From NCBI GenBank assembly GCA_905178155.1, contig CAJINV010000001.1:8631642-8695641 (forward strand): 64,000 bases of DNA, in the 5' to 3' direction. The notes under the pieces were generated by a model that had not been told where the DNA came from, ran no database searches, and worked only from the letters and a program-made list of their open reading frames with translations. Position numbers and translations under genes: made by a program. This document shows, piece by piece, positions 10,601 to 59,902 of the stretch (position 1 is the first letter of the stretch; the number at the start of each line of letters is the position of its first letter). This stretch comes from Amoebophrya sp. A120 (Eukaryota; Protista; Dinoflagellata).

Positions 10601-12610
10601 GTGGTGTGCGTCCGAAGAAGCGACCACGGCCAAATGCCGACGGGGACGTAGATATGTTGGAAGATGACGCGCAGGAGGAAATGCGGCTGCCCCGAGGCGT
10701 GCGACCCGCAAATACGGGAAGAAACCGGAAGAAACAGCCAAAGAAGCCGAAGAAGGAGGGCGGCGCGCACTACCTGCAGGTCACGCTCGGACCAGACGCG
10801 GCCGTGAAATTCGACGAAGCCAAGAAGACGGTTTTTGTGCGCAATATCGATGTGCACGTGGATGAGCCAGAGCTAGAAAGATTGGTATGGATTTTTGATG
10901 TTTATCGCTTGCTGAATTTCATCAATTTCAAAGGCCAGCTGCACCGACCGATCTTCGTACCCGATTTTGTCAAAGGACACCGTAAAAATAAAAATCCCGA
11001 TGCTTAAGCTTAGACTTAGTCTGTTCCACAATTTTGTGCAGGTTGCCGAGCACGCTGTCCCAGGGTTGCAGGAGGTTCGCGTGGTGCGGGACTTCCGGGG
11101 AAACCCCAAGGGGTGGGCATACCTGGACTTTGACGAGGAAGAGAATGTGCGGCTGTGCTGCGAGAAGCTGCACAACTTGGAACTGCACTCCCGAAAACTG
11201 TTCGCCAAACCCTCGAAACCGACACAGCAACTCTACGAACCCGGGGTCGTCTTCCTGACGAACGTGGCCCGAGGCTTCGACCTCCGCGCCTTTTTCCAGA
11301 CCCAGCACGGCTTAGCCGTCAAGGACGTGCGCTTTTTGTCTTCAGCAGGAGGAGGTGCAGGCGGGAGCCAGAACCTCCACACAAACAGTACGCCGGCCGG
11401 AGGTACTAGCAGTAGTTCTACTTCTGCAACAGGGCTAGTGGAGCATCAAACGTGCAACGCTTTCGTTGAGTTCGAGCAGGAGAGTTCCGTGGAGAAGGCC
11501 ATCCACCTAGAGTCCCTCCCGCCGGAGATCCAGAAAATTGAGCGGTCCATCCCGATGAAGAACCACGAACACAAATACGCGAAGACGCGGAAGGATGCAC
11601 CGGGGGGTTTTAATGACCAGCTGAAGTGGAAGCGGGACCTGGACGCGCTGAAGGCGAAAGCAAAAAACACGCTGTTCGTGAAAAACCTCAATAAGAAAAC
11701 CACCGAGGCCGGGATATCCTGTGTAAAAACGTACCCACACCAGAGTTGTAATGCAAATCTGCATGCTGAAAATGTTTCTCATGCGGAACCCCATGAGAAG
11801 CGTTTTCTAGTCGTGTTTTGCAATTTGTCATGCTCCAATCAGCATGGTATGCTAGATCTGTGATGCTGCTGAGCTAGCTCAAACAGCACTACACTACGAA
11901 TCCAAATTTGTCATGCAAAACAGCCAAAACTTGTGGATTTGTCTAGCCGATTCCCCATCTTGACTATGGTGTGGGTACGTTTTTACTCAGGATACGGGAT
12001 CCGGCAGCACTTTGCGTTGTACGGCGAAATCACGCAGATTGCCCTGATGAAGAACGAGCACGGAAAAAACAAGGGCTTCGGCTTTCTGGAGCTGAAAACC
12101 GCTGAAGAGGCGGCGGCGGCGCTACAATTGAATAATTCGGACCTCGACGGGCGGAAAATCAACGTGGCAATATCGGACCGCCCGATCACCAACAAAAAGG
12201 AGCAGGCGGAAACAACAAGCACTGCTCGAGTGGCACTGGTAGTCGACCGCAGTGAAGACGGACAGATGTTGGGAAAGTCGGGAAAGAATGACTTTGGACA
12301 AAAAAAAGGGCCGTTTGACAAGAACGCGAGCAAAGGGAAAGACGGCAAGAAAGGGGGCTTTGGGAAAGACGGAAAGAAAAAAGGCGGAAAAAACAGTGAC
12401 TTCAAGGGCGCAAAGAAGGTCGGCGGCAAAGAAAACAAAGGTTCGGTTAAGTCCAAGGACAAAGGCGGCATGAAAAAAGGCTTCTATGCGGGCTCAGAAC
12501 AACCCGAAACCGCAACCGGAGCAGCTCCGATGGAGGGCGTGGAGGAAGGAAGTGGCGTTGCGTCCGCTCCAATGTCCAACGCTGATTTTCGAAAATTCCT
12601 GATGGATTAG
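7696..12610 (+). CDS. SART3: U4/U6 snRNP recycling factor SART3/Prp24 (helical HAT-like region, RRMs, C-terminal Lsm-interaction motif)
   Basis: Exons 7696-10884, 11042-11714, 12000-12610. RNP motifs TVFVRNI/KGWAYLDF and TLFVKNL/KGFGFLEL. C-terminal MSNADFRKFLMD matches the Prp24/SART3 Lsm-binding motif. One GT-AG intron (10885-11041) and one TIR introner. Confidence 0.85.
11715..11994 (+). mobile_element. TIR introner A (280 bp, TATCCTG family), non-canonical intron in SART3
   Basis: 32-bp TIR TATCCTGTGTAAAAACGTACCCACACCAGAGT with 2 mismatches to the right end. TSD CGGGA at 11710-11714 and 11995-11999. Excision restores TTEAGIRQHF within an RRM. Confidence 0.92.
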
Positions 12611-13759
12611 TAGTAAGACTTCCCTAGCGTGTGTGATATTTCGCAAAGATTGTTGTTTCTAAAGCAGAAACCACACAACTATGATCTATCAATGGCGCAC
12701 GCAGAACGGTTCAGTGTTTTTTTCTTGAGATTATCGCAAGGTCGAAGGTACGAGATGAAGATGGCGATGCCAATGCCCACATCAACCCCACTTTTTTTTC
12801 AGCGCGTGGTGTTCTCCGTCGCATGTTTGTTCCTCGTGCTCAAACACTAAAAAGAAGAAAGCGGCCCCCGTTGTCCTATGACGACCCCACTTTTAAGTCC
12901 GAAGCGGCAGCGGTTCGCAGAATTTTTGTGAATCAGCAAGAACGTCGTAGTAGATAGCTTCCGGCCGAGGAAAGCCCTACTAACCTGTTACTGCTCCCTT
13001 CTCTGTGCAAAGGCAAGAACCGCAACCGCGGCTAAAAGCTCTCACTTGAGATGATCTCTCCCGATCCTCTTGTAGTCGCGTAGAAGATCGAGCGGTGGAT
13101 CCTCGTTGTAGAAGGTCTTTCTTGTCCACCCCACGAGGAAAGGACGTGTACTTTTTGCAATGACACTTGGGATGCGCCAGCACCCGATTCACGCTGACAA
13201 CGATAAGTACCCTTGCGGTATGGCAGCTGTATCAGTTCGAAAGCAACAACAGTGCCTGATGCAGCTGCGTATGTTTTTGTGAGTAAGTTGATTTGGACAG
13301 AAAGAAATGAGTCTAGTTTCCGAAATTCCGATAATTGAAGGTCCCCTCCTTCGAAACTCGAACGACAACTACTAACGCATTATAGCATTATAGCATCTGC
13401 GGGTCTCCCTCAACCCTTTCCTCTCATAGTCATTGTCAATCGTTTACTTCACCCGTTTTGCTTTTGTGTATCTTTTCGTTGAAGGTCGATCACGGATATC
13501 CAGCTCTAGATCTACCACGGCATACCCATTTTCAAATGGGTAGACGTAGATGGAAGTGTTGTAGTGTAGACGCGTTACAGAGTAGATCTAGCAGCCTGTA
13601 GTTTCATCATGATGATAATGTAGACTCTGAGGAGAAAATGAAATAAGTAAAGAAATAAAGAAAAAGGGAACAGCAACAGCACTCGTCACGACATATGTTG
13701 CTCGTTGAAAAAAAAATGGCGTAGGATACCGTACCGGTGGCTGAGTAGGCTTCTGGTAA

Positions 13760-15128
13760 ATGGCCGAAGCTTTCCAATCGGACATTCGCATTGACGCGAA
13801 GCAGAAAAGGAATGGCGCACTTTTGAAGAATTTTGCGACAGCCACAACTTGGACAAGCGGCGCTTTTATTCCGTGCTACAAATACAATCCTGAAGGAATC
13901 TTCACAAACTTGAATGTATTGTTCCCAGTGAAGACACCAGTAGAAATAAAGCAAACAACATCGTCACAAAGACCAAAATCGTATCAACTACGGCACGAAA
14001 ACCACGTCGAGAGGAACGTAATCATCGCCCCCCTAGCCCGCGATAATTCGGGAAAATTGCGGCGTCTTCCTCGGGCGTTTCGGCCGGTCTGGCCCGTAGC
14101 CAGGTAGGTGGAGGAGGCAAGCGTTCAGGGAGTCCTAGCAGCCACGACGCGGTGTATCCTGAGCAACAACGTTCCCACGCCAGAGTTATCATGCAGGAGA
14201 TTTGCATTTGATGAGATGCAAAGACAGGAAGACGTGTAAATGTAATGCGTATGCCTACGACGAGGGCCATTTCCGGTCGCGTTAGGGCCATTTCGTAATG
14301 CTGTAAACGCGATGTCGATACATGATTGGCCCTTGCTAAACTGCACTACTACAATAGAGAGAGGAACTTGTCACGCGTGACGCCCAAAGTTCCTGGATTT
14401 GTCTTGCAGATTGCTCATCTTGACTCTGGGGTGGGGACTTTTTTGCTCAGGATACAGTTGTCAGTATGGCTACCCTGTACGTGGAGCTCCGGCACCAGGC
14501 GGACGCGGTCGGCCCCAGTAGAAGTGCTAGCAGCCCCAGCAGTCCTGCAGGATCCTCGGGCGTAGTTCGCCCGGCCGCCGCGGCCGGGGAAGTTGTAGAC
14601 CCGCCAGCGGAAGCAGGCGGGGCAGCGAGAGCAACGCCGAAGGCCGCCGCTACAGGGAACACGAATTTGACGACTAAACAGGAAAATGACCGAATAAGAA
14701 ATACCCCGAGGGTAATCCGCGTGGAATTCCCCGAGAACGACCCGCGGGTGAAGAAAAGTGGGCAGCAGAGGATCATCGAGCGGGAGGCTTTGCTGCTGCA
14801 GTTGGAACGGGACCACGGCATCCCGCCCCTGGCGTGCGATGTGTACGCCAACATTCCGGGCAGACAGGTAAAGGAGCAGGTGGAGGACCGATTTGTATTG
14901 TGCAAAAAGGATCTCAACGCTGATCACGACTCGGACGAGCCGCACAATCCGAAGAGACCCCGGTCCTCGGGCTCTACCGGCGCCAATGGAGCCATGGACG
15001 CGAAGGGTGGAACCGAGGCGGCCAAAGCAGTACCCGTAGCGGGGGCCGCAGCAGAGGCCCCGGCCGCAGTAAAACCGGAGGAGGCGCAGCAGCCGGCGAA
15101 AGAGAAAAAATCTTATGTACTTCGCTGA
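13760..15128 (+). CDS. Hypothetical protein; 5' exon structure uncertain, last exon about 14460-15128
   Basis: Strong GC-rich ORF 14466-15128. Upstream sequence joins either by element excision or by a GT-AG intron 14104-14464 from ORF 13760. Confidence 0.45.
14155..14454 (+). mobile_element. TIR introner B (300 bp, TATCCTG family) with a degenerate TSD
   Basis: 32-bp TIR TATCCTGAGCAACAACGTTCCCACGCCAGAGT with 4 mismatches. Flanks CGGTG/CAGTT. Internal similarity to elements A and F. Confidence 0.85.
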
Positions 15129-15572
15129 TTTGAACTTGTATATTGATTGTAGTACTACTTCTAGATCCGATTCAGCTAACCAAAGAAGGTGACATGCATC
15201 GTGAATCTAGTTGAGAGACATGAATATTGAAGAAATGTGTTTCTAGAATGCTATAAAACTCTCGTACTGCTGTAAACGCGATCGCGCCAAGGAGAATTGA
15301 ACGACGAGCTTGCAGCGTCACACAGAGATTTTTTTTTAACAGGCCTCGAAGATCGTCGACAACGTGCGTACCTTGCGTGGCATGGCAAATAACATGTTCG
15401 GCACTAACGGCGACGCCCAGGACCAGCTCTCCACACGGCCGAATAGTGGTATTCTGCTACTGTCGGACAGTTTATTCATTGGGTTGGAAAATTTTGAAGG
15501 GAGACCGACAAAGAGAAATACGATGCATGACCAACTTGAACATAGAGATTAAGGCCTCTTCAAACACAAGGT

Positions 15573-17415
15573 ATGAGCACCCGGCCCAGCACGGCGGGCA
15601 CGGCGGAGTTTCCCGTCGAAGGTAAAATTGTGTACGACCTCAAGACAAAGCACCTCTTGACAAGAGGCAAAACTATAGATACAAAGGCATGGATTCCCAT
15701 TGACCTCTTCTGCTCCGCTGCGCCTGGGGATCTTGCGACCCAGATCAACAGCATCATGGCCATCGGCGACATCGCAGAACACTGCAAGGCTTACGTACAG
15801 AAAATTGAAATTGCATTTTGATTTCACAGTAGACGACCCGACAGTGACGACAGAGACGCAGACTTCAATAATTGTCATTGCTGCTTTTTTTTACTAGCAG
15901 GGAAAGTAAGAATCTGAATCACAATCAATTGTGACAATGAATATGAACCCTTTCCAGGTGTATCTGCGCCTCTGGACAGAATCGTATGGCGAGGAACTTT
16001 GGGCCAGAGTAGAAGAGCCACTTACCAAAGAGGATCAAGAGATCGGCCTGGCAAAGGATACGATCAACCAGATTCACAAAAGTGAATTTGTACGGGAAAA
16101 CAAAGCCCATCCCTAACACGACCGCGCACGAATAAACTTGCATAGGTCAACATGCTTGCAGTAGTCTCACACATGCGACGAGGGCCGACTGGCTCGTTAA
16201 ATTCCTTCGTGTATGGTATCATGTCGTCGTGTATCGAGGGTCCCGGGAGCTTGAGCAATCAAGAACTTCTTGTGCGCGAGTTGTATGCCGCGATGGACTA
16301 GGTTTTTGTTGATAATATTTTCCGAACAACATGCTTCAGCCGATATCGGAGTACTTCATAGCGGGCGCCTCGAAGAATCGCAGTCATTATCTCATGCAAG
16401 AGTACCAGTATACGCCGCCCACCGCGGAAGAAAAGGACGACCCCACCCTGGGGGAGGCCGCAAGGGAACGAGCGAGAGCTGGGCGTGAGCAACTTACGTA
16501 CCATGAGTTCTTGCGGTGCGTGTTCTTGTCCACCATGGAGGTCTCGAACGATTTTCAGAATGCGCACTGGAAAGACATGCCCAGTCTCAAGCCCATGCAG
16601 CTGGCCTGTCTGGTATACCGACCTCTGGCTGAAATTTGCAGAGTCATCGGGTACTATAGTCTTGTACGCAGTTCGTTTTGTTGTAAAAACTTTTCTTCGA
16701 CGTCGTTTAACACAAGCACAAAATAATCCTCGCAGAAAGGGAAAAACTGCACCATAATAAATGCACCATGACCACCAGTTTCCAGTTTGCGTTTATTTTT
16801 GTTTTATCTGGTGGGTGCCCAGCCAGCGCAAGCCCGTACAATAATTTTCCATCATGTTCATGCAGCTTTGGCCGCCGAGTGCTTCAGATCCTCATCAATG
16901 CGCCCAAGGACGCGGACATCGCTGTGCAGGACCGCTATAAGTACCTGGGAAGGACTAAGAAGGGAAAACCCGTGTGCACGGAAGAGCCCTGGCACATGTG
17001 CACCCCTGAGTGGAGGAAGAAAAAGCTGCGGGAATACTTCAAACTCGGTATGCATTTCGGCACGTCCTCGTTGATCATGACTGTGATTGCGTGCCATTTT
17101 CTTTTTCCCCCCTCGTATGCGTAGATTGCGATCAGCTTTGTCTATCCCTTTGCGTTTGTTTTTGGTTCGAAGCTCACGTTGCTCCGCACTCCTGATCTTG
17201 ATGTTGTTCAGAGCCAAGAATTATGAAGAGATGCTTTTATTCATCTACTCATTTCCACAGGAACCGAAGCAGGTCATCGTGTCGACTTCTGGGACCAAGG
17301 GCTGACATCGACACCAATACAAGTGTACGAATTGGCGACTGCAATCCTTCACTGCTTGTATCTCAATTCCGGAATCTTTCCCGCTTCATCAACTGCAGCG
17401 ACGAATGCGTACTAA
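15573..17415 (+). CDS. Hypothetical five-exon protein
   Basis: Putative in-frame introns 15789-15957 (GC-AG), 16105-16339 (GC-AG), 16643-16887 and 17048-17260 (GT-AG); stop TAA 17413-17415. No recognised domain. Confidence 0.5.
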
Positions 17416-26945: not shown

Positions 26946-27638
26946 TCTGAACGAGACAGAGGCACGAGGATGCAACGACGAATCCCAATCGATTTCCACA
27001 TGGCTTGAGGCTGCAAAAGCTTCTGCGGCAAATATTTTTCTGTGACTGAAAGATAAAGAAGAAGAACTCCATGGGAATGAATGACAGGACCAAGCAGTGC
27101 TTCTTCTGTGTTTTTGTGCCCATCCTGGTACTTTCATTTTCGTATGTCGTTCATTTTGCTTTTGGTTTTCGTGAATCGTCAGCATTCAAGCTCAGTTTCG
27201 TCTTCAACTCGAACTCGTGCAAAACGAAAATGAAGTTTCGTCATATCCAATTCGTGCACAATGAAAATGAAGTTTTGGGTTCAGTCGTGCGTCGTTCAAA
27301 TTCGTTTGCTACTTCTTGTGTTTGTTCGTGTGTAGTTTGTTAGAAATTGGATCTTTCGTTATCAGTGTCTTGTTTTCGTCGACCCCAGCCATCGCTTTCA
27401 TTTGATTTAAGGAGACAGGTTGACAACTAATACATACATGGCCGCGACTAGTATCAACACGTACAACATTCCCCCTGCTACAGCTATGAAGTTTTGTTTG
27501 AACTTAGTGTTGAAAAAGCCACGAGGTCACCAGCCCAGGAGGACCACACTAGACGATATAACACTAGACATGTGAAGACGAGATAGAGAATCACTTTCCC
27601 CCCATTTTTCCTTTGATAGACAGCAAATCGCTGACTGC

Positions 27639-40274: not shown

Positions 40275-41537
40275 TACCAGTAGGGATGCGCCACGCTGTT
40301 GCTGTCCCACCGCAGTCGCTGACCTGGTCGCCGGGAGGCAGCGCGCTGCGCCCTCTAGGGCTGTCGATCTTCATCTTCCATGTCGGTCCGAGCTTGTGTT
40401 TTAGCAAACGCGTGCGCTTGCTGTTCTACACAGCAAAACTTAACCATTCTCCTGGAATAGATAACGTTCGTGCCGATGTTTCTCCCGTGCTCCGCCCCGA
40501 TGCACGAGCTGTGTTGTCTGTCTATATTCGAAAGACCAGCATAATTTTATATTTTTCTAGTTGCGATGCGTCACGTATTCGGCACATCTTTGTGATTATC
40601 TGCAGCACCTGCTGAGCTTGAGTATGTGGAGTCATCAGCCACTGAACATGAAGAGGCTGTAATAAATACGACTCCAAGCGCGGTCGCTGATCGTGTTCCC
40701 ATTTGCAGGGTCGATCAAAGATGAAAATAATGCGGATATAATTCCCTGCATAGTGATAGCAGAAGATGAAGAAAGCGACGAAAGTTCGGTGCTTCATCTG
40801 CGGCAAGGTCTCGTGTGTCGTGCTTGAGCCTCACCTTCGTAGAAGTTTTTTCTTTTGTTTCCATATGCATGGCGACAACATGATAAATCGGTTTCTCTCA
40901 TGTAGTACTGTTGCGTTGGAGTTCGTTGAGTTCGGTACGGAGAGAAAGCGGCATGATCGCGAAAAAAATCGGTGTCACGGCCCGCATCGTGCTTCGGGTG
41001 TGTTGCTAGTTTCCTTTTTCGTTTGTTGTCCTTTATATCAGCCCGTTGGTCATGGACTTCCATTCGGTGTTTATGATGAATGTTTGCTCGGTGTTGGTTA
41101 AGTATCTTCTTGAATGCCAGCGTTCCCAATCGGTTTGGTGTTAAAGGTTGCCGCGTACACCACTTATGTGGATCTTTCGTGTCCAACATCTTCTTCATTC
41201 AGTCCAACGTTCCTCCGATTGGGACCCGCTCGATTTTTTTCAACATCTTTTGTTGATCAGGGACCGATAGGCAGCACTCATAGTAAGTACTTTCTTTTGG
41301 CACTAGCTGCAAGGGGAACCCCCGCCTGACGATCTTCAAAAATGTACAAGCGACTCCTATGGGAGTCCGAGTGCTCGCTGCACTCGGAGATCATCAAAAA
41401 GAGCAAGAGTCTTCTAAGTATATATACATACTAGCCACCCCCGGCGCATCCATACATGTTCGGCATCAACAGGTGGTAAGACCACTTGAAGATAGACAGC
41501 ACTTTTCAAAGTACTAACTTCACTGACAGTAAAAATC

Positions 41538-44500: not shown

Positions 44501-46022
44501 GGACATTCTGTCTTCGCACTACGACCACGTGTACTCAAACATGCTGTTGCAAGGCCTCGCCGAGAGAGAGTGGGCGCAGCGGTTTCTTCTCGGTCAGCGG
44601 GGCGGACGCCACCTGGTGACGCGAAGACCTCCTGGTGCTCCCGAAGGAATGCAGGAATCAAACAATCGGGACGACGACGACGACGTGGAGCAGGGTGATT
44701 TAGATGATGATGGGACGAACAAGGAACCTGCCGAGGCAGGCACAGCTCCAGCTGCGCAACACGGGGACGATCCAACTTCGGAGCAGAACACTTCAAGGTC
44801 CAGCTTTTCCTTCGGCGTCTTCGGCTCGTCCTTGCGCCGAGAGAAGAGCAGTGCAAGTGCGGAAGTCGCGGCCCCGAATCCGCAGCTCGACGTCACCACG
44901 AGCTCTGTTTTCCAGGGAAAGGCCCTGAGCATGTCGTCAATCGGCACCACAATTGGAGCGGGACAGAGTTCTACAATTACCGCGAGCTGCATCTCCTCCG
45001 GAGCACCACCACATACAACATCGAGTCTGCTCAACAGCGACAGTGGCGGTACTATGGAGCTGTTACCGTCTGTGGCCTCCAGGCGCCCCAGCGCCGATCT
45101 GCCGCGGCCCGACACCGCACCCAGCAATCAGCTGGACGACAGTGGAATTGAGAGTAGTAACTCTCAACACCGCAGAGGAGGAGGACCTCCTCGTGCCAGT
45201 ACCGCTGCTGCGAGTCGCCGACATAGTCAAGTGAGCGCATTTTCGCAGAGCTCGTCCACGAGCGCGTTGTCCGAGACAACAAGCGCAGCATCCTCGCTGA
45301 TGATCCAGGGTCGGCGCACCGCCGCGCGTCTCCGCCGAGCGGTGGATACGGAGGACGTCGTGGTCTCCCAGGCACTAGCATCCTGCACGAACTTTTTCGC
45401 CCTTCCGCTCGTCCGGAGCACACTGGATAAAATTTCCAAGAAGACGCACGAGAAATCGCAGACGGCCCTGTATCACAGCCGGGGCTGGAACCCGCTGGAT
45501 CGCCACGGCTGGGACCAGCGGTGGATCGTGGACAAGCGGAAGGCGGTTTTGGGCGCGAAGCGGTTCGGCTCCGTGGACTTCTTCGACAAGAAGGTGTACG
45601 AGGTTCCCAACCACGCGTTTCTCACCGAGGAGTCCGCCCGGGTGCAGTTCCAACGGAGCGCCGTAGCGCGGCCCGCGAAGGTTTCCGAACCCACCTCGGT
45701 GTCCGCCTCGCAGCGGGCGGCGGGCGGCCGGGGCTCGAATCGCCGCAACCAGCACCACATTGCCGGCCCGCTCGCGACCGGGGTTGGGAGCGACAAGGTG
45801 GTCGACACGCTGGTGTCCAAGCACGGCTCCATGGACAATTACGATGCCCACAGAGACGCCAATCCCAACACCGCACCCTTACACTACATGAGCGTCGAAC
45901 GGCGCCGCTATCAGGAACGACCGGACAGCTCGCCACGACCGACGCTGCTTACCGGGTTCGGGCGCGGGCTTCCGGGAAAGTCCGGCCTTGTCCACACGGG
46001 GACGAGCGGCAGCTGGGCGTGA
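41538..46022 (+). CDS. RING-H2 E3 ligase-like protein with an N-terminal zinc ribbon and a ZZ-like finger
   Basis: 1494-aa ORF. FCHSC..CPSC ribbon; CAIC..LPCGHVFHFDCCRDWL..CPMCR RING-H2; HCGVC..CVE..CSKC..HPGHTF ZZ-like. Confidence 0.8.
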   Translation: MGAGPSTGPASQPEEQVEEAELHLFCHSCGNRKVLQIDPATGSYEHPQCCPSCGEATALELMPFAVDNSSTQNSFVHEPAVECVTVELDEVDEQTGYIHLRVLPKIKNLDDRFQEQNVVDKSPVRISSSERDSSTTGADHRTICTPVATSAPHLLQGRTCHRGAVDNGNSNARSNPGDAVAGSVESGGQVRTRQDDQEDPQEGMIMNAADTTGTAARQAVDPELLVRTSTTTAHHSPFEGVLTSGALAAQQEPNVSSSDNEVVPEFTPTAQKLLDSILPVPYRGRRYVYNLFGQKPKRKDGQQSSASEAISSASEVEPTDKLTQQISGSSTKQRHSTRSQQQQNRSKFGKFLSEAIEAAASSTALAGTTGGATGGSSSTTAAGGTTARNSQTTTTAGAPQPPHLVHAGASTNRPSASLASSSLNLHQHILDTTTTSQAANTSASNMSRNLMIHRYRSAGPTSEAECGGGAHPTSNQQDGATNFGTMSIASSNTTVNRRSVHNYHTSRASRASDTIASTAFEEECAICKVNFAKYEEVVGLPCGHVFHFDCCRDWLARQHTCPMCRFELEVDDGTFLRSVGRHAEAAVLEEEGHWFSALIKKNASVHFGLHCGVCRATPLFGNNVHQCVERRGFFSCSKCWVSGRAKSAHPGHTFRPFDCFTSVKDKSTLPSITLVPAAADGAGSDSLSGVEQHHDSRDVEAFSRPQDGEINSVMLLAGTTDSQQLEQSINTSLSSSPLQNVAIVSQLEADAEEAALAISHADVAGRALVTQQDEAQDEAQPQSASQLENFDPSVSAAQSVLKCRAQDYHMKQTLFQSLERAPLFDTSPLKKFDDAEERDRADRILATARKYREGELAPRVNSARNLWEKKSEESKKPAGRLHRGSVSSIRKKHFFPTAKGPEKVERELLGSRANGGAMSATSSAGGASSSSSSSQPHSTSGPSQNASAACSLSPHRGPHVGLQLKHGPDYYHHGCVANNAEESSRQTGDILSSHYDHVYSNMLLQGLAEREWAQRFLLGQRGGRHLVTRRPPGAPEGMQESNNRDDDDDVEQGDLDDDGTNKEPAEAGTAPAAQHGDDPTSEQNTSRSSFSFGVFGSSLRREKSSASAEVAAPNPQLDVTTSSVFQGKALSMSSIGTTIGAGQSSTITASCISSGAPPHTTSSLLNSDSGGTMELLPSVASRRPSADLPRPDTAPSNQLDDSGIESSNSQHRRGGGPPRASTAAASRRHSQVSAFSQSSSTSALSETTSAASSLMIQGRRTAARLRRAVDTEDVVVSQALASCTNFFALPLVRSTLDKISKKTHEKSQTALYHSRGWNPLDRHGWDQRWIVDKRKAVLGAKRFGSVDFFDKKVYEVPNHAFLTEESARVQFQRSAVARPAKVSEPTSVSASQRAAGGRGSNRRNQHHIAGPLATGVGSDKVVDTLVSKHGSMDNYDAHRDANPNTAPLHYMSVERRRYQERPDSSPRPTLLTGFGRGLPGKSGLVHTGTSGSWA

Positions 46023-47119: not shown

Positions 47120-49547
47120 ATGTTGCAGGCATCGTCGCTCGAGTCCGCTGTTGTGCAACACAACAACGGTAAGAACGGCGTTGCTGACCCATTAGCTCCT
47201 AAGCAACTAACTTTTGAAGAGCGCATGCAGGAGCGCGAGCGTAGTCAGTCGCCTGGTAGTCCTCGGCGCAAGCCGAAGGAACTAAGTAGACGAGAGAAAA
47301 AGAGACTTTACCGCCTCAACACCGCGGCGCAAGAGTCGGTTTCTGAGACAGTCAAAGAATTGCGTGACTCTGTCGAGGAGCTCGTCGGACATGAGGCTGA
47401 CTGGCGGCGACAAAAAGAGGAAATGAAAAAGTACGGTAAATGCAGTGTGTTTGCCACTACAGAAGATCGGGAACGCTATTTGAGTAACATTAGAAAGGAA
47501 GTTTCGAACACCCCCATTCCCGATAAGAAACAACTCCGACTCGAGGCGGAGGAGGACGCCGCTCTGACCGCGCCCCCGAAAAAGAAAAAGTCCCCGAGAC
47601 GTAGACAGCGTCCCCACAGCCCGGGCGTTAAGAATAACACGTTTCGGAGGTCCAGGACTCTAGACACTAAGTTACCAAAAATATCCGAGCAACTACCCGT
47701 TGTTAGCCACGCAGAAGACACCAGTACAGCCCTCGCTACAACTACAACTTCTAAAGAAAAAAGTACATCTAAATCCACTACAACTAGTCGGCGCGTATCC
47801 CTGCCCCCTATCCCCGTTAAGAACAAGAGAGTCTCCGACCCGAAAGATGAGCCCCATCGTGTAATCTCGTTGAAGGAACTCAAAACCCCACACATTTGCA
47901 ATACCAAACTCCTACGCAAACAGTTAGAACGTGAGGAAAGACAAGAGGCCGCTCGTTTGGCGGAGTGGCATGCTCAACTGAACAAATACGAAGATCCTGA
48001 AAAAATGACCTCTTCGCAGGGAGCTATCGTGCCCGCGGAGCCGATCCCGGACTGGCTCTCTACAAAAAGTTTGGCGAAGCGAAGGTACTAAACTATGATG
48101 GATATTTTATTATGTGCCTTTTTTCCACCTCGCATCCTGAAAACGCGAGAAACGATAGATGACTACACAGCGTGCTAGTACACTCACTTTTGCAATAAAT
48201 GCACAGCTCTGTGGAAGATGATACAGAAATGCAAAAAACACTTTTTTCAAACAAATTCAGGTACCTTCCAGCGTCAACAGGCAATCTCCATGGTCTGCAG
48301 GCAGGAGAGTTCCACAACACAAAATGGCCATTACCGAAGATGTTTGGCCAGGAGAAATACGCCTTTTCGCTGATCGACATTGAAGACCCAAGGTACGACG
48401 CTTATGTGCATTTCGAACAAACGGAAACTTCGTGCCTTTACATGATTCTTCTGTGGCATGATGGTAGCTTTTATTGGCCTTGCAAAGATAACAAAACGCA
48501 ACCTGAACCTTTTCCAAACCACCCGGCAGGTACGTCGACGAGTGCGCGAGCATGAGCAAGCAGCTGATACACTACTTCTACGACCAACAAATTTTCGACC
48601 TCAAGTGGAGGGAAACGTACTTACACACAGTTTTTATTTGCGATACTGATAGTGCACCACTAGGACTAGCATAGTAGTACGGACATACTGAGTTTCCTGC
48701 GCATAATGTTCCTGATGGAATCTAATCTACTTCGGCTTTCCCTGGTCGTGTGACATCAACATGCAAACCGGCGAAACAGATCACATCACGATTCTTGCAT
48801 GTTCCTATAAAAAACAGGTACAAACAACTGATCCGGGCCGAGAAGAGGAGAGCGAACTTGCCAGCGCTGGCATCAAACAAAGCAAAGGATGAACTGGATG
48901 GCAACGTCAAGAAATTCAAAAAGTATAGAGTTTGCTAAGATGTTGGTTTAGCATTAGCTTTCCCTTTAGGTAGCAAAATATCTTCCATTTTTTTGGCGTG
49001 CAAAATCAAATGCACCGACGTCAGCGTGTTGTATCCGCAACAAGAAGTAACTACAAGTGCGTTGTTTCTATTCGGTTGTACTCGATGAAAACTAGGTACC
49101 TACTCGAGCTCCAGGAGCAGCGGGATTTGTATCAGACGAAGATCGACGGCATTTTCGAGCGGTGCGCCCAGATCAAGCGGGGCATCAAGAAGGAGAATGA
49201 CCTCGAGGAACTGCGAATGGAGATGACCGGTCGGGTGAAGGCCAAGTTCGCCCAGGAGGACGGATTCTGGTCCACGCAATTCAACTGCACCCGCCCCGAT
49301 GATGCCAGGGGTATGTTTGTTTTGTTGGATGAAAATATTCTTCTTTGTGTACAAGAACTTGTAGCGCTACGGTGAAGTGCTTCTTATGTATGATCGCTAA
49401 TATGTCCCGAATGCCTTGTGAATAACGATGGAATGTTTGCGCTTCTTGATTTGATTCCCGTCTTTTTTGACTCTGCATGGTTCCATCCGTAAGCGCATTT
49501 CTTCAATTTTTGCAGGTAGCGACGACGATCTGTTGCTTTCCGACTGA
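47120..49547 (+). CDS. Hypothetical coiled-coil protein, six exons
   Basis: In-frame GT-AG introns 48085-48260, 48393-48529, 48617-48817, 48923-49095 and 49311-49515; stop TGA 49545-49547. Confidence 0.65.
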
Positions 49548-50842
49548 TGGGGATGAAGAGGACGACGGAAGAATGTAAGTGAAGCCGATGTAAAAAATCT
49601 TTACTCTTCCCCCAAGTATCCTACCCATCAGTTACGACAGATCCCCCCAACACCGGCTCGCAGTATCGCACTCTTGACCATTCCAATGTAAAATGCTCAA
49701 ATCAACAGTTACAAAGTCTCAGCTCAGAACAGCTTCGTTTCAAATCAGTTACAGTTCAAAGTCAGACTCAGGACAAAACCTTTAAATTCAGAACAGTTGC
49801 AAGATTATAGGACGATTACAGTAAGTTCAGACAGCACACGTCGCAGTTACTTATCTAAAATTTCGTACGCGTCTCTTAAATGAATAGCTATACATAGCAA
49901 AAAGCTCGTTTTTGATTATGGTTTCGAAGTCAAGGAGATTGTCTCCATTCTTTGCGCAATGTAAGTTTAAGTTTAACGGATAATGCACCTAGATATCGTT
50001 ACGGTTATCTCAGCTAGTATTTTGAAACTGCCCATTCGTAGTCAGGTTTGAGTGTCAATCTTTGACATGCTCTTCTTGGTGAATTTAGTGGCCGCACGCG
50101 GTCTAAAACGAGCGCCAGAAACACGTATGCTGTGATCGCGTAGACCCGGGGGTGCGGCCACACTGTAGAATTTTACCATTCACCCGTACTTGCGGAGGAC
50201 CTGATGCGCAGCGGAACAGTAACTTTCTAAAATGCACCAACGTACCTAAGAGCTTTCGTTACACTACTAGCGCAATTTGAATCAGATCAGGGTCAGCCTC
50301 GGTTGCTGATGTTGAAGATAAAGAGGGACGGGTAAAACAGCTCACTATCACGTACCTGTACACAAATTTCAGCAGATTGCAAAAGAAAATGAGCTAACAC
50401 TGTATGGTAATCTTCTTCCATGCCATGTACTCATCCGCCACATTCAAACGCATGTTCAACATATTCATCACGTCCTAATGTGCTCGTCAGTCTCGCGGCG
50501 GAAATATCGTCTGAGAAGAAGGTTTCCTAGCCGTGTCGTTGTGTCCAAAACCAGACCGCTCAGAGGTCCACACTTGATAGGGACCGCCGCGAGTGCCAAT
50601 ATTCTCTTAGAAGTAGGAACGCATGATATGTGTCGTTATTGTCGTTGGTTGGCCGATTCAGCGTTATCAGTGTCGTCATAACATATGTGTTTGCGAATGC
50701 GATAGTCCAGAATTAGAAACTAGAATATGACTTACAAGCAGAACTTTTTGGTGGTCACTCAGTGTGCGCTCAGTACTTTTTTTCCAAAGGGAGGTAGTAA
50801 GGCGGTTTTTTGCACTTGTAAAGGTAAACTTGTAGCATTATC

Positions 50843-53800
50843 ATGTCGTTCCTCCCTCCATCGTCGTCATCTCGGCAAGGCATGAACCCCTTCCCGCCTC
50901 TGCCCTTGCCTCCGTTTCATGTCGCGCGACAATCGTTACCTGCGAACAGGGACACGGACCCCATGTTTCATTTGTTCGCTTTGTCGCAGACTCAAGACTA
51001 CCCGGACGATCATGCGCACAACAGCGATGACGACATCGGAAGGTTCGGAGACGGTTGCGTTGAAACCGCACAGCTGGACGAAAGGCCACACGAGCTGCCC
51101 GAACTTGCTAACGTGCTTGCGCCAGCCGCCCCATCTTCTCCCAAATCTCCGGACCAACCGGCTGTCGGCGCGATGACGGTTTTGGTGCCCCCGCAGGAGA
51201 CGAGCGGGGGCGAATCAATACAAGAGGTAGAGCATCATGCTCCGGCCGAGGACGAGGATCCGCAGCTAACAGTTCTCCGGGCACGATTAGCGGAGAAGGA
51301 GAAAGAGCTGCAAAGCCTTCGACAGGCACACGAGGAAGAGTTGCAGTGGTTGAAGCAAGAAAGTGAAGCGAAAAAAGGAGCGCTTGAAAAAATCGAAGCC
51401 GAGCGCGATGTTTGGAAGCAGCGTGCGGTGACTGCGGAGGAGAAGATACTATCCGCAACAAAGGCACAGCCACAGCCACTAGCGCCAACAAACTCAGCAG
51501 TCATTGTTCCAGGGGCTGCGTTACTGCCTGAGCTAGCTGGGCACCGCAGTGGCGATTCGATTGCGCGTGAACGAAGCGGACCGGAGGCACTGGACACGAC
51601 CATGGAAATGCAGAAACGAGAGAATCTAGCTGTGGACGAACCAGATCTAAACTTGCTGTCGGACGAGTTCGACCAAGATTTGTTGCTAAACGAACCCATC
51701 GAAGAAGATGACTTTGGCCGACATGAAATCGCTGAAGCTTCTGTCGCTGCAGCAGGTGGGAGGCAGGAGGCTCTTGCGTCGTCTACTTTTTCATCATTGC
51801 CTCGCGATAAAGCCGGAACGGGGAGGCAAGCTGGAAGTAGCCGTGCAGGGCAAGCGGGTACCAAAAGCCTTACCTTCAACGAGCAACACGAAAATTTCTT
51901 GGCTATCGATAAGTTTCTAGGGGAGCTTGGAAAGCAGGAGGCGATGACGCCGCTTATGCTGGCTGGGGTGCTGCAGACACTCTGTTTTCCCACCGCCTTG
52001 CGCATGAATGTCACCGACGGCAAGCCGCGGCCGCAGAAGTACATGAATACGGGTCTCATGGGTGTGGGTCGTATCAAAGGCTGGGGATGCCAGGAGTTTA
52101 CATTATCTCTGAGCAAGCTGCTCAATCGGTAGAAAAGTATTTTTCTTTTGCACTACTTTTTGCCTCTGTGAGTTGCTCCTGTTTCATCTGTTTTGCCGTA
52201 CCTTCACAAATTTGGATTTGCTTTTTTGCGCATCCTCTACAGAATGTGACCGCCTTTTGATTGTTGAAACGCCGCGTCAGGTTTTTTGACGCTTGGATGC
52301 TACCGCAGTTGCTGGAAAGCGGCGCGGTTGAAGACGCTAAAGAAGTGCACTTCACGACAACCACACTGAACAACGGTGTGAATTGCTGTGTGCACGTTGA
52401 TGGAAAGAACAGTGGCGTTTCGTACGCAATCAGCGTTGGAGGCCGGGGATCCTTGGCAGTGTTTGATAGAGAAGCTGCGCACGAGGACGCAAAGAATCCA
52501 CCGTCGGCGGCGCACGTCCGAATATCGGTTCCGCGGGAGGGACCGGACCTCAAGGAGTACAAGTACCTGCGCGGAAAATCGTGGTGGTTTAGGGTGCACG
52601 ACACATCCGAAAAGGCTGTTCAGTTCGATGCTCGCATCCCGCACCTCACCCACGAGGCAGAAATCGGGCGCTTCGCAATTTTGTTCTACCCGCATGAGGG
52701 ATATGCGACACTCAAAAATCGAGCAGGGTTCGAAAAGGTGAAGAAAACTCTGCAAGGGCGGGGCTTCCGCCCGCCGCCACACCCTTTTGACGACTTGGAT
52801 CCAGCTGCGCCGGATGAGCACGAAGACCACGACCCAAGCCTCTTCCTTTCCGACAATAGGCATAAAGTGCTCGCTTCTTCGGCGCGTCGGCAGGATAAGC
52901 GAATGATCCCTGAAGAGCACTCTTCGAGCTCGATAGCACTCCGTAGAAGTCTCCACCAATCTCCGGCACCCGTAGTGCACCGCGCAAAAAGGTTTGTCGA
53001 AAAACCACAAGCGTCGCCGTCCCAGCCTGACTACACGAATCAAGACATTCGAAACGGTTTGCGAGACTACCAGGTGCCGCTGTTCGACAAAATTCTGGCG
53101 TCCAAGGAGAGTGGTGGCGGCATCGTGGATTGCGCCACCGGAATCGGGAAGAGCTTGCTGCAGTTTGCCGCGATGCTGTACCTACATGAGACCGGACAGC
53201 GCTGCCGGCTTTCGATCTTGGTCACTCCGCGACTAGCGTTGCAGAAGCAAATGGCCGCCTACATCCTGGACCGGGGAAAGTGCCAGGTCATTGCCAAAGC
53301 CAGCGGCAGCAGGAAGCACCTCTTTGTGGGGTCCGACAGCGACGAGACTCAGAAGTACTTCGACTCATGCCGGGCAAACTCTCAGCGGGAGGTGCATGCA
53401 GAGTACTGCAATGCAACGCGAGACAAGGCGAAAGTACACGCGTTTTTGGCAGAACCGGGATCAAAGCAGATCATTGTCACCTACGACTCCCTGTGGCCCC
53501 TGCTTGAAGCGGTGCACGAGGACACGACAGTGAGCATCGACATCGCAGTCCTGGACGAAGCTCACCGTGCGGCGGGAGAAGAGAAGTTCCGGGGCGTTTT
53601 CGAACCTGAGAAGGGATTGCGCGCGAGGTCGCGCTGGACCTTGTTCTTCTCAGCAACCCCAGCTAAGCTGCAGAAAAAGCTTGTGAAAAAGAAAATCACG
53701 CCGGCGCTTCCAACCATCTGTGATTACCCCGCATGGAAAGCAGTCGGTGAGAATGTGCTGTGTGGGATCGAGCTCGTTATGGTCGCGATGCCGGAATCTA

Positions 53801-55788
53801 GTAGTGCCGATGGGACTAGTACCGCGGGGAACAAGGTGCTTACTGGCAGCTTTGCTTCTCTGGAAGACCACAATGGCCAGGAGGCTGAAGAGGACTCAAG
53901 GCTACATGCTCCCGATGAACTAGATGAGTCTTCTCGACCAGGAGAACGTCAGGCCGAACACGAAGCGGGTGGCTGCTGCAGCTTCGATCGGAAGGAGTTC
54001 CTCCGGCGACTGTTTCGCGTCTGCTTCTGGACTTGCAAACACGAATATCAGTTTGTGATTGTTTTCTGTAGCTTCTTGAACGCGCGCGACGCAGGGCAAA
54101 GCTCTGTGAATGGATTTCGCGATAATGTGGACGAAATCTTTGAGGTGCTTGACCTGGTACGAGCGGAAGTTAAGAAGACCGATCCTGAGCTAGCGAACAG
54201 ACGGTGCAAGCCTGACGCAAAGAACATGTACTTTCTGGACGACCGCACTAGTGTGGAAAGCGTGACGAAGAACTTCCAAGAACCAGGACAGCCTGGGGAC
54301 ATGAAGATCGTGTTTGCGGCCAACAAGTTGAACGAGGGCAACGACCTTCCGTACGCAAACGTAGCCGCCCCTGCATACCTTCCCGGCGATGAGGACAAGT
54401 GGATCCAGATGTGCGGTCGGGTAATGCGCAACCCGCGCTACGAACCTGGTTCCCGACCGAAACCTGTAACCGTCATGTTGCCTATCCCGCTACCCCTCGA
54501 GCGGATCCGGAAAGGAAAGACCGTGCTGGTAAGGAAAGACCGGCTGCGCGAGGCACTGGCCGACAAGATGGTCGAAGCAAGGTTCATTACTCGCTTTTGC
54601 TGCGCGCTTGATCTAATGGAAAAGTTTTCTCGGAGTGAAGCCTTTTCCCAGGAGGAGGATGCGATTCTCAAATACCTAGTGCGGTCTGGTTCTACAGAAC
54701 GAGCTCATAGTGCAGCTGAGATTGACAGCAGCGCCCATCGGCCAGTCTCCGAAGTAGAGAAATCCGTTGTAGCACCACAACTAGTCGCCGATGCCGAACT
54801 GACAGCGTACGCAAAAGCTCTGCCATTGAAGCTCTTTGGCGAAGACATTTCAGCTATGTTGGACGTTTCTCGTGAAGATGCGGAAGCTGCATTGCGGGAC
54901 GCTTTTCTTTCAACCGGGACAGAGATTGCAGAGGACATTTGGACTAAGAAAGTGACAGTCCTGAAGAACTATGTGAAGACCAACGCGACCCGATATCCGG
55001 ATGTCAATTCTCCGGAGCGTGCCTTGTGGGTATTCTACGAGCAGCAGAAGCACAGCAGGGACCTGTTCGGCACCATGGGTAAGCGCGGCGAGGCCCGGAT
55101 CAAGATGCTAGAGGCGATCGAAAATTTTCAATGGAGTGCGAACCCGTGGAAAGTTTCAAAGATGTCCAATAAGCGTGCCGCCAAACACGTCGAACCAAGT
55201 CAGAGCTCTAGTGCAAACGCTCGGTCCGCCAAAAAGCCACGTCAGGTGCAGTGGCTCTCCTTCGAGAAAAGCAAAATGAAAAACGGGCCGGCCGAAGCAA
55301 AAATTACGCAGAAGCACGCGGACACGATTACGAAGGACGACATTATCGGCTTGTTGGATGGGAGCATTGACGCAAGAACAAAGGGCGGGGTCCCTTGGGT
55401 GCCGCGAAACTTTTTTGATGCCCTGGGTGATTCTCCGCTTTCACACGATCCGGACGTCGTGGCGGCCTGGCTAAACAAGGTTGCCGAACAAGAGTTACCC
55501 CAAGCGTTCCCGCACCAGGATAGCCAGCTTCCGGCATACGCGTTTCCGCCGATGCCAGTCCCCTCGACGGAACAGCTTATCGCGTGCTGCGAAAAACTGC
55601 CGAAGATGACACCGCAAGGCTATGAGCGCTGCGTTGCCGCAATACTGGGGACGGAAAAACCTGCCGCGGCGCTCGTCGCGACACTCTGTACGCAGACCAA
55701 GGGTTTACAGAAGGTGGTTCCAGTTGCTCGAGTGCTTTCACGAGCGGAAGAAAAATACCCTGCTTTGAAGGGCAAGTGGAAAGTGTGA
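50843..55788 (+). CDS. Superfamily 2 DExH helicase with a helicase-associated (HA)-like domain
   Basis: GT-AG intron 52129-52280. Motifs ATGIGKS (I), LVTPRLALQKQ (Ia), LDEAH (II), SAT (III), LNEGNDLP (V) and QMCGRVMR (VI). HA-like W..KVTVLKNY..P..LWVFYEQQK..RIKMLEAIENFQW. Confidence 0.8.
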
Positions 55789-56376: not shown

Positions 56377-59300
56377 ATGTCAGCTCCGACCGCCCCGGCG
56401 GGGTCGAAGGAGCGCAGCTACCGCACGTCGGCGACGCAGGAATCGGAAGTCAACGATGGCGCGAGCGGTGGCGGCTTCTTCAAGCGGCTGTTTTCCTCGA
56501 ATTCGAAGGACAAGCCGGATCCGCCCGACCGGAGGCAGTCGCGTACGAGCGTGAGCAAAGAGAACAATTGGGGCCAGGGGAGAACGGTGAACCTGGATGC
56601 CGACGCGGACAGGCCCGGTGGCAGGTTGAAGGCTGAGATGGGGCCCGGGCTCGGGCCGGCCCCGAGTGGACCCGTGCTCGGCCACGGTTTGTACGCGGAC
56701 GACTCGGCTGGGCCGTCGAAGGAGTTTGACTTCCGCAAGCCGCCGGACGCGCATTTCAAAAAACCGATGAACTCGCCCGCCGGTGCCAGTGCGTCGGCTT
56801 CCGGCTCCGGGACCGGCGCGGCTGGCAACATGCCGAACGCCTACTACAAGCCTGCGCAGGCCGAGATGGAGGCCAAGGCGCGGCGCCAGTGGCATGAACG
56901 CGTGGAAAGCAGCAGCAAGGACAAGCCGAACGGGTCCCCACAGAACAATAATTACAACCCGGGGGACGCCGGTCCCTCGCCGCGGTTGTTCCAGCGGCAG
57001 AACGTGCCCGTGATGCCGGGCGTCACCGGAACTTCCGGCGATGCGAGCCGGAGGCCCATCTGCGTCGCCTACCGCGAGGGGCGCTGCGAATTCGGGGCGT
57101 GGTGTTTCTGGAGCCACGGGAACGACGGCGTTACGTCGATTCCCGGTCGAGGACCGCCAGGACGGCGCGACTCTTTTGACCCCGCGTTCGTGCCGCCCCC
57201 GACTCGCGATCCGCTGAACCGCCCGGTGATGCCCGACGGGAACCGGCGCGCGAGCTTCGACCGTGCAGGCAGTGTGGGCGGAAGGCCCGGTAGTTCTGCG
57301 AAGGATTTACCTTCTGAAAAAAAAGCCAAAGTGGGCTTTTTCAGTCGGCTGCTCGCCGTGCTTTTTCGCAAGAAGGAGCCGCCCCCCGACCAAGGGCCGC
57401 AAAGACGAAATTCTTTTCGGGATTACGACACGGTGAAGCCGCCGCCTCCGCCCAGTGCGGCCAAAAACATGGAGAAGAACATGGACCAGGTGAGCAGTTC
57501 GTCCGACGAACGAGTGAACGTGTACGACACCCTGGATGAGGACGCGCCATTCATTTGCGAGGAAGTGAACGACGGCGAGGATGCCTTGCGCGATTACATG
57601 CGGCAGCGGGAAAACTTCAGCACGCAACTGGTGAACACGATCAAAGTCGGGGACATTCTGTCCGACAAGTTCCTCGACGTCGATCTCGGCAGCAGCTCGT
57701 CGCAGCCCGAGCACAGCGGAAAGACCTCTCCCAGCACCACCGCGACGGGAGCGGGGGTCGCTGGCGCAGCCGCGGGGGCGGGACTTCCTCCGACCGGTGG
57801 CGGTGCAGGAGGAGCCCCGGGGCCGCAGTTGAAGGAGCCGAAAAAGTTCAACATTTACGACCACGTCGACAGTACGAAAACGACCGAGGCGCCGAAGAAG
57901 TACAACATTTACGACGACGCGCCGCCAACAGCACAGGGTGCTGACGCCCCGGCGTCGCGCAAGTACAATGTATACGACGATTTGCCTCCCGCCGCGGACG
58001 GGGCTGCCGCGCGACGCACCTCCAATGTGTACGACACGCGGCCGGACACAGCGACCAACGCGAGCAAAGAGAAGTTCAAGACGTTCAACCCAACGCCAAA
58101 CGTCACACCGGGGGCCGGTCCGAACCTCGGTCCGTCCCCTCGCGGCGGGGACGCGACCGCATCGGGCGAGGCGCGGAAAAGCAGCAACAGTGCCTACAGC
58201 TTCGCGTCGAAAGCGCCCTCGCAGGCGAATAAACCCGAGCAGCCGCAGGGCGACGCGACGCCCGCCGGGTGGGCCAACGCGCGTTCGGAGCCGCGCGAAT
58301 CGAAAGTGTACAACAAAGTGCATCCACAACCAGCGGAGGAGGAAAATCCCAGCTATCGGCGGCGCGACTCAGGCGGCACGACTGCAGCAGGGGACGATTA
58401 CGGAAACCAGCCGCGGTCCTACGCCACGGGCGAGAGCAAGCAACAGCAGAATTTCTATTCGCGGCTGGGCGCAAAGATGGGGGGTCGCGGCGCCAGCGCC
58501 GACCAGCAGCCCTCGGCGAACGACGCTCAGCAAGAACAACGGCGGAATAGCGGGCCGGGCCCGGCGATGGGCAGTGCCCCGACGGGGCAAAGCTACGAAA
58601 GCAAGAAGCAAAAGCCGGACCAGCAAAGCCAGCAAGCGGGGGCCGCATCTTCGAGCGACCACCAACAAAATCAAAACGCACAACAGCAACAGCAAAGCAA
58701 AAAGTCTGCGCCGGCCTCAGACCAAAAGCAAGACCAAGGCTCGTCGGGCAACCAGAATTCGCAGCATCAGAGTAGCTCTTCCACCACGTCGGACCAGCAG
58801 CAGCAGCAGGCGAACGGTAACAACAAGCGGAGTCGAAGGCGAAAGAACCCGAATTCCGGCTATTTCTGGTACGAGGGGTATTACTACTACTTTGATGCAG
58901 ACTACAATGTGTATTGGTGGTGGGACGACCGCATGAAGCAATACCACCAGTGTATCTCGAAGGAGGAACAGGAAAAGCAGAGCCGCTCTCGCAACACCTC
59001 CTCCACCACCGCGGGGACTTCTAGTCGCGGGGGCACCGGAGGTAGTTCGGCCTCCAACGCGAATGCCCCGCCCGGATTTCCCTCCTTCGGTCCGAAGCGC
59101 GACGGGCGGGGCACGGAGCCGCAGTTCAACCAACAACAGTCCAATCAGCAGCAGCAGCAGAAACAGCAGCAAAAGGAGAACAATAAAACCAGTCCGGGCG
59201 ACGATGATGCGGGGGGAACGAACAACAAGAAATCGGCGCCGCCGGACATGAGCCGGACGGCCGCGATATCCTGAGCAAAATATCCCCACCCCAGAGTTGT

Positions 59301-59902
59301 CATGCGGATTTGCGATGACAGGAAGACTTGTAATGCGCATCTCCATGAGAGGCATTACCAGTCGTGTTTTGAAATTTGTAATGCTGCAAACAGGATCAGA
59401 AGATGGATTTGTGATGCGGTTTTCCTTGCTAACATGCACTACACTACGGACTGCAACTTGTCATGCGTGGCTCCCAAAACTTTTGGATTTGTGTTGCTAA
59501 GTGCCCAACTTGACTCTGGTGTGGGGACGTTTTTACTCAGGATACGCGAACTTCATGACCTCGGCGGAAGACGCGAGTGACGAACAAATCAAGGTGAACC
59601 AGCTGATCATGCAGCTCATCGCGGAAATGCAGGAGTTATCCACGAAAAAACACCCGTCCCCATCCAATTTGTCATGCAAAACATGCATAAAATCCACTAT
59701 TTGTCATGCAAAAAATGGATGGGGATGGGTGTTTTTTCCTGGATAGGAGTACGCGGAGAAGGACCTCGCGGACCGGAAGAAGGTGTTCAAAAAGATGTGC
59801 TTGGAGTGGCACCCGGACAAACACAGCAACGACGCCCAGTTTGTTGCCAAGTGCGCCTTCCAATTCCTGCAGGAAAAAAAAGAGAGCTTCCTAAAGAACT
59901 AA
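56377..59902 (+). CDS. CCCH zinc-finger / OCRE-like / C-terminal J-domain protein (exons 56377-59266, 59550-59636, 59751-59902)
   Basis: CCCH finger CVAYREGRCEFGAWCFWSH; aromatic OCRE-like NSGYFWYEGYYYYFDADYNVYWWWD. After removing two introners the C-terminus reads RKKVFKKMCLEWHPDKH..AKCAFQFLQEKKESFLKN*. Confidence 0.8.
59267..59544 (+). mobile_element. TIR introner F (278 bp, TATCCTG family)
   Basis: About 31-bp imperfect TIR TATCCTGAGCAAAATATCCCCACCCCAGAGT. TSD CGCGA at 59262-59266 and 59545-59549. Excision gives SRTAANFMTS. Collinear with element A. Confidence 0.92.
59637..59745 (+). mobile_element. TIR introner G (109 bp)
   Basis: 30-bp TIR TATCCACGAAAAAACACCCGTCCCCATCCA with 2 mismatches. 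TSD GGAGT at 59632-59636 and 59746-59750. Excision gives EMQEYAEKDL. Confidence 0.92.

Follow-up and report, generated by a model that had tools for sequence, protein, structure and literature searches.

Introners with TAT...ATA ends in Amoebophrya sp. A120 leave the RNA together with one copy of a 5-bp duplication

We studied a 64,000-nucleotide (nt) stretch of the Amoebophrya sp. A120 genome (contig CAJINV010000001.1, positions 8,631,642 to 8,695,641; hereafter the window), whose genes are interrupted by short transposon-like elements with TAT...ATA ends, here named A to H. We found that B, C, D and E leave the RNA as the element plus 5 bases, and it is nearly certain that all of A to H are known A120 introners removed in this form. 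The original prediction had placed seven elements in the window, and all seven (A to G) were recovered at the same coordinates, each starting with TAT[C/G] and ending with [C/G]ATA (7/7); an eighth element, H, which is decayed and spliced, had been missed. The 5-nt direct repeats at the element borders were as predicted, being perfect in 6/7 elements and matching at 3/5 positions in B, and so was the terminal pattern TATSnnnnGYAA in five of the seven (A, B, D, E and F). All coordinates are collected in Table 1.

The evidence for removal comes from assembled contigs. Runs X3 and X5 carry the label 'RNA?', and GT-AG introns are missing from their contigs, indicating that these contigs are spliced transcripts; X1 is a DNA-like run whose contigs keep the introns. 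One 3370-nt contig of X5 omitted C (250 nt), D (257 nt) and E (168 nt) together with seven GT-AG introns, and carried no extra letters. Similarly, one contig of X3 omitted B (305 nt) and eight GT-AG introns, and the same contig lacked a further 232 nt at 16087-16318, which corresponds to H (227+5). Removal of these 232 nt keeps the 1052-codon frame, whereas removal of 231 or 233 nt breaks it. The depth of X1 was 0 at the joints of B, C, D and E, and one X1 contig covered B intact. For A, the X3 contig pieces were separated by 669 nt between 10883 and 11995, precisely the length of the exon 11041-11709, suggesting that A is also removed precisely from the RNA. Precise removal at the RNA level, as had been proposed, was thus seen at the joints of B to E and is indicated by contig arithmetic at A, and the contigs skip the element plus 5 bases rather than retaining the element or splicing at nearby GT/AG sites, with no use of the CAG in B. 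Each joint is represented by one contig, contigs drop rare variants, and X1 is possibly the window's own source. The raw RNA runs X9 (3 reads) and X10 (123 reads) had almost no reads on exons and were uninformative on splicing. About 120 raw RNA reads of X10, which is another sample, matched only the inside of A (11909-11965), with fixed differences and with none on the flanking exons; a related element is therefore transcribed in that sample, from another genome or another locus.

We then compared the host genes with public protein models. Each of A to G brings stops or a frameshift, and the frame reopens on removal of the element plus 5 bases, while the frame by itself does not separate removal of +2, +5 or +8. 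The prediction that taking out an element with one repeat restores a coherent protein in six cases agreed with the public A120 models, which already splice out A, C, D, E, F and G (6/7 elements). When each element was taken out together with 5 bases, the CFAP69 product was identical to model P0001 (884/884 residues), the J-domain product to P0005 (830/830) and the RRM/Lsm-motif product to P0006 (1509/1509), and the exons of the three host genes matched proteins labelled Amoebophrya sp. A120 at 100%. Moreover, the CFAP69 orthologues P0002 and P0003 were ungapped at C, D and E, and the orthologues P0007 and P0008 of the RRM gene were ungapped across A, indicating that removal at A, C, D and E is fixed at +5. 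From its RRM and Lsm-interaction motif, we take the host gene of A to be Prp24/SART3-like, and it is likely a spliceosome recycling factor that itself depends on introner removal. The site of B likely lies in the 5′ leader of the 1052-codon open reading frame (ORF), the gene that also hosts H and has no confident Pfam match.

A blind scan of the window for terminal inverted repeat (TIR) pairs with at least 13/16 matches and a direct repeat returned 21 pairs, of which seven had a 5-nt repeat, namely A, C, D, E, F, G and one 1755-nt pair without TAT ends. The G+C content of A to G was 39-49%, against 53% for the window. One family is formed by the homologous elements A, B and F (z scores 20-39), and the remaining elements share short words only. 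The inner TIR differs between elements, with CAA in C and other sequence in E and G, and we judged that they fit the published motif of TAT, variable bases and an A run. For H, the terminal profile favoured a right end at 16317, and its internal homology to B was not significant (z 0.6). Solo end-like sequences that have no partner occur in the window at 27599-27618, 48626-48645 and 49889-49908 and are possibly remnants; the first of them resembles a family with AAAAATCCCCCCTC ends that was found in the related loci described below.

We further searched metagenome contigs with a paired-end pattern for A/D-type ends and obtained at least 130 related loci under a single accession prefix, which likely represent one genome; viral contigs gave 0 matches to this pattern. 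The counts that follow refer to the related loci that were listed. These loci hold relatives of A to G, up to 98% identical to A. When no repeat was required, 355 TAT...ATA TIR pairs were found, compared with 27 in shuffled loci. An exact flanking repeat of 5 nt was present in 220 of the 355, of 4 nt in 3 and of 6 nt in 0, indicating that the repeat is a fixed 5-bp target-site duplication (TSD). In the 100-350 nt class, 217/293 elements had an exact 5-mer. The sequence of the duplication was near-random, and at 514 element ends A occupied positions 11, 12 and 13 in 452, 473 and 487 cases, respectively. The flanking frames, which were scored independently, needed 5 mod 3 kept bases in 81/89 coding cases. 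Elements A to G and their relatives have the features of miniature inverted-repeat transposable elements (MITEs): they are short and non-coding, carry TIRs and a TSD of constant length, and occur in many copies.

To examine orientation, we left out 92 of the 355 TIR pairs (below 3/5 repeat identity or longer than 400 nt), and 104 of the 263 kept elements were then dropped as not confidently coding, leaving 159. The word TGTVATGC, a post hoc find, had 18 of its 19 plus-strand matches in the window inside the seven elements, all in sense direction, and it was present in 256/263 elements of the related loci; H is without this word, yet it is spliced. Among the 159 coding elements the word was sense in 69, antisense in 64 and tied in 26. 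The strand caller was right in 113/114 held-out 180-nt windows at the margin used, and Pfam anchoring of the strand gave matches for 8 of the 150 ORF pieces, these being the longest of 455 candidates. In addition, two of the loci (L055 and L037) have elements in reverse orientation flanked by exons that match Pfam. The word was thus rejected as a strand-specific splice signal, since it was strand-neutral (69:64) in independent loci and the 7/7 polarity in the window is chance; it is more likely a DNA-level (transposase-binding) or folding feature. The removal signal must be largely symmetric and located in the element ends.

Next, we asked how these elements relate to GT-AG signals. No register inside the repeat gave GT-AG in any of the seven window elements (0/7), and GA-AG was possible only in G; both statements had been made in the original prediction, while its list of elements that offer no AG end (A, D and F) was incomplete, as E also offers none. 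At the related loci, any-register GT-AG occurred in 9/159 confidently coding elements, against 7.6 ± 2.6 expected, so GT-AG registers are at chance and there is no selection for GT-AG. B offers an intron GTATCCT...GATACAG of 304 nt that is one base off and outside the ORF, but the contig removes 305 nt. GT-AG splicing of B at 14154-14464 or 14154-14457 was also considered, and neither was seen in the contig. The proposal that a terminal hairpin rather than GT-AG sets the cut is supported indirectly by these results, namely by the tolerance of both orientations, the lack of GT-AG enrichment and the passing over of GT...CAG in B. The 16 canonical introns (e.g. 10885-11041 and 33277-33410) have GTA(C/T) donors, with A at +3 in 15/16, C or T at +4 in 13/16 and T at +5 in 9/16, and showed no consistent CTRAY branch motif near their 3′ ends. 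These donors and the inconsistent branch motif may relate to the U1 small nuclear RNA (snRNA), which was not detected in A120 according to the text of Farhat et al. 2021 (PMC7789003).

Where the repeat is perfect, the register of the cut is masked; mutated repeats, as in B and H, reveal it. The joint product of B was CGGTT, which places the cut after repeat position 2, 3 or 4, and that of H was ATTTC, which places it at position 1-4, given H's inferred boundaries. A cut flush with the TIR is thereby excluded for both, showing that the cut lies inside the duplication in B and, with its inferred boundaries, in H. In both elements G stands directly before the TIR, which yields a GT start at register 4. 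This register, with the cut one base before TAT and four bases after ATA, is by a small degree the placement that we prefer. It would make all copies start N-TAT-S, near the genome's GTA(C/T) donors, and in Table S4 of PMC7789003 T occupies +2 in every one of the nine commonest A120 splice classes. Among repeat mismatches at the related loci, G at position 5 stood on the left copy in 7:0 cases (p 0.016), or 7:1 (p 0.07) when the lowest-confidence case was included. The register prediction had a mixed outcome on 20 lower-confidence elements. Any copy whose duplication has mutated, as in B and H, serves as a natural reporter of where the cut falls, and existing RNA sequencing data could be used with such copies to map the register genome-wide.

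The TIRs, the fixed 5-bp duplication, the several families with shared outer ends and the very high depth argue for DNA transposition in trans. In X1 the depth summed over A and D exceeded 100,000, against about 26 on the flanks, as a rough proxy only. Three long TSD-flanked copies (631, 739 and 1384 nt; Table 1) contained short ORFs only, and a Pfam scan of the 11 ORFs in the longest one yielded nothing relevant. This longest copy is an A-family element with about 1.1 kb of extra internal sequence holding short tandem repeats, with no transposase match. A lead to the transposase is family 38 of Gozashti et al. 2025, for which the text reports ORFs with Copia/Gypsy homology inside the TIRs (PMC12130899); no element of this kind was found in our analysis.

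Table 1. Elements, long related copies and host genes. Positions of A to H and of the host genes are those of the window; positions of the long copies are those of the related locus named.
Feature	Position	Strand	Length	Flanking duplication	Description
Element A	11715-11994	.	280 nt	CGGGA (11710-11714 and 11995-11999)	Family of B and F; interrupts RRM, + strand gene
Element B	14155-14454	.	300 nt	CGGTG/CAGTT, diverged	Upstream of ATG 14466 of the 1052-codon ORF
Element C	33587-33831	.	245 nt	TACAG	Inside CFAP69 gene
Element D	34182-34433	.	252 nt	ACGCC	Inside CFAP69; very high-copy family
Element E	35778-35940	.	163 nt	CGTGG	Inside CFAP69
Element F	59267-59544	.	278 nt	CGCGA	J-domain gene; basis: anatomy and public protein model
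Element G	59637-59745	.	109 nt	GGAGT	J-domain gene of F; basis: anatomy and public protein model
Element H	16091-16317	.	227 nt	ATTTG/TTTTC	Decayed TAC...ATA; inferred boundaries, alternative 16089-16314
Long copy, L064	1547-2930		1384 nt	perfect, 5 bp	
Long copy, L021	3315-3945		631 nt	perfect, 5 bp	
Long copy, L053	3096-3834		739 nt	perfect, 5 bp	
Host gene of A	7639-12610	+			RRM and Lsm-interaction motif (Pfam); one GT-AG intron, 10885-11041
Host gene of C, D and E	32613-37049	+	884 aa		CFAP69 ARM repeat (Pfam); 7 GT-AG introns and 3 introners
Host gene of F and G	57013-59902	+	830 aa		C-terminal DnaJ/J domain (Pfam)

Taken together, we lean slightly towards a mechanism in which TIR introners are spread by a transposase acting in trans and in which their paired ends guide a modified spliceosome to cut them out. 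Short non-coding TAT...ATA elements would be spread by a DNA transposase encoded elsewhere, with a 5-base target duplication, and the element plus one copy of this duplication would be cut from the transcript by the modified spliceosome. The 5′ cut would fall one base before TAT, so that the intron start N-T-A-T-S would resemble the GTA(C/T) donors with its first base free, and the 3′ cut would fall four bases after ATA, at a position given by the distance to the terminal stem rather than by AG. Either orientation of the insertion would probably be tolerated, as both ends carry the same signal. As far as the sequence can tell, a modified spliceosome that uses N-TAT-S as its donor and locates the 3′ end from the terminal stem is a reading that we hold with modest preference. 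Several points weigh against this mechanism. Splicing at the related loci was read from interrupted frames and not from RNA. The preference for register 4 draws on two contigs, both from one run, as well as on the boundaries inferred for H and on a weak signal from mismatches; the excess of G on the left copy also holds at positions 1-4 (15:5) and is thus not specific to position 5, G at position 5 is not enriched among perfect repeats (38/133), and the Table S4 classes were possibly shaped by the choice of aligner. When orientation was assigned by homology to the window copies, the D family gave 25:12 and the A family 12:29, and these roughly 2:1 skews in opposite directions imply that the two ends are not fully equivalent. 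A branch-point motif was not evident in the elements (one match to CTRAC), and the canonical introns are likewise without a consistent one. No transposase was found by Pfam among the 22 ORFs of the window, and the text of Farhat et al. likewise reports none found for A120 (PMC7789003). As none was found, the original idea that one transposase type mobilised the several families is a weaker point than had been implied.

Removal could also be independent of the spliceosome. A structure-reading endonuclease would cut the duplication in a staggered manner at the foot of the terminal stem, and the exons would be joined by an RNA ligase. Such a route is suspected for the nonconventional introns of euglenids, which leave as circles, a precedent described in PMC11282704. 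The orientation independence, the lack of GT-AG enrichment and the passing over of the canonical pair in B all fit such a route, as does the failure to detect the U1 snRNA in A120 (PMC7789003). The TIRs pair end to end in the predicted fold of 152/159 elements, which is expected from the selection and has no shuffle control, and an Rfam scan of the window gave 0 matches to group I/II introns or other RNA families at the gathering threshold, with which this route stays compatible. However, the start N-TAT-S is similar to the GTAY donor of this genome and its first base is G in both aged, RNA-backed elements, almost the full spliceosome is present in A120 (PMC7789003), and the introns of Fritillaria with TIRs and TSDs are reported to be spliceosomal (PMC11282704). 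We regard this route as possible but on the whole improbable. A route in which only the symmetric TAT/ATA stem is read, with a fixed stagger in the 5-base duplication, in either orientation, even where GT...CAG is one base off, and with no lariat chemistry, is a tentative and somewhat doubtful proposal.

Two further explanations would deny that introners are spliced at the borders seen. The ordinary spliceosome might act at nearby GT/GC/GA...AG sites, inside the elements or next to them, with the exact joints as artefacts; in-frame GT-AG pairs do lie within 40 nt of A to E, and the text of PMC7789003 reports the inverted repeat/direct repeat (IR/DR) organisation in 15% of A120 canonical introns. 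But the RNA contigs use none of these pairs, the joints in the contigs correspond to the element plus 5 and contain nothing else, which largely refutes the idea for B to E, F and G have no in-frame GT-AG alternative, and the orthologues show no gap at A, C, D or E; we consider it extremely unlikely. Alternatively, the mRNA may not be truly spliced, the elements being excised from DNA in a subset of cells or a life stage, or skipped by template switching across the hairpin at reverse transcription. Template switching typically occurs at a stable stem with direct repeats on either side; perfect repeats yield an identical product either way, and the X1 evidence consists of contigs only, with the limits given above. 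On the other hand, the elements add stops or frameshifts to conserved genes, so that the proteins need their removal, B and H are removed though their repeats match at 3/5 positions only, and X1 has no depth at the joints of B to E and holds B intact. This explanation is quite improbable, if less so than splicing at nearby sites.

The elements are members of a published class that is already known. IR/DR-bounded non-canonical introners in Amoebophrya, which the original prediction had cited, are documented by the A120 motif of Farhat et al. 2021 (PMC7789003), whose text and tables describe more than 60% of A120 introns as non-canonical, with an average of 240 nt, an IR motif that opens with TAT and continues with seven variable bases and three or more A, a DR of 3-5 nt, and 29,850 introner members grouped into 1954 families; A120 has almost the whole set of spliceosomal proteins, and the terminal motif, the repeats and the hairpin model all stand there. 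Our elements share the organism label, the IR motif, the repeat and the size class with these introners and show no difference in kind. In that text and its tables, the repeats are variable (3-5 nt) and the borders unknown, in contrast to the fixed 5-bp TSD found here; figures apart, they mention no fixed 5-bp TSD, orientation independence, TGTVATGC or cut register, some of which Figures 3 and S19-S25 may show. The literature, with few subscription journals covered, gave no statement on the orientation, lariats or fixed register of Amoebophrya introners. The text of Gozashti et al. 2025 (PMC12130899) lists 58 A120 families, with TIR DNA of unknown superfamily in most of 22 rows, about half with non-canonical splice sites, and automated TSD calls of 2-5 nt. 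Accordingly, what we add to published work is the fixed 5-bp TSD, the orientation independence, GT-AG at chance and the cut inside the duplication.

Other systems share parts of this organisation. As far as the source's text goes, IS3EU/GingerRoot elements have TA..TA termini as well and belong to a group with an integrase-like DDE transposase, but their TSD is usually 6 bp (PMC10045372), whereas ours is 5 bp and 6-mers were found at 0/355 TIR pairs. The nonconventional introns of euglenids also have non-GT-AG ends at a fixed offset from paired terminal motifs and a proposed MITE origin; they differ in their signature N3CDG...CH'G N5-6|R, with a purine required after the 3′ cut, and in their release as circles, where our elements have TAT/ATA and long TIRs (texts of PMC12501133 and PMC11282704). 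The MITE-derived introns of Fritillaria borealis share the TIR, the TSD, non-canonical ends and a recent species-specific gain, but they prefer AG-AC or AG-AT ends and are reported to be removed by the U2 spliceosome (text of PMC11282704), whereas our elements have no preferred dinucleotide pair.

Elsewhere in the window, the long ORFs with Pfam matches are all on the + strand, in agreement with the co-oriented gene blocks reported for the genus; besides CFAP69 they include a RING finger (41496-46019), a DEAD/ResIII helicase (52261-55785) and LIM (27576-30266). The region 60790-61200 holds tandem repeats coding GNNTGNST-like and SEALRAG-like units, in a 709-codon ORF without a Pfam match.

The removal of tens of thousands of introns without GT-AG is the question that these results address, and three constraints now sharpen it: the elements are tolerated in either orientation, GT-AG is not under selection and goes unused where it is available one base off, and the duplication itself contains the cut. 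If the stem-reading route without a lariat were true, it would be a second nuclear mRNA splicing system, which would make any insertion of the transposon harmless.

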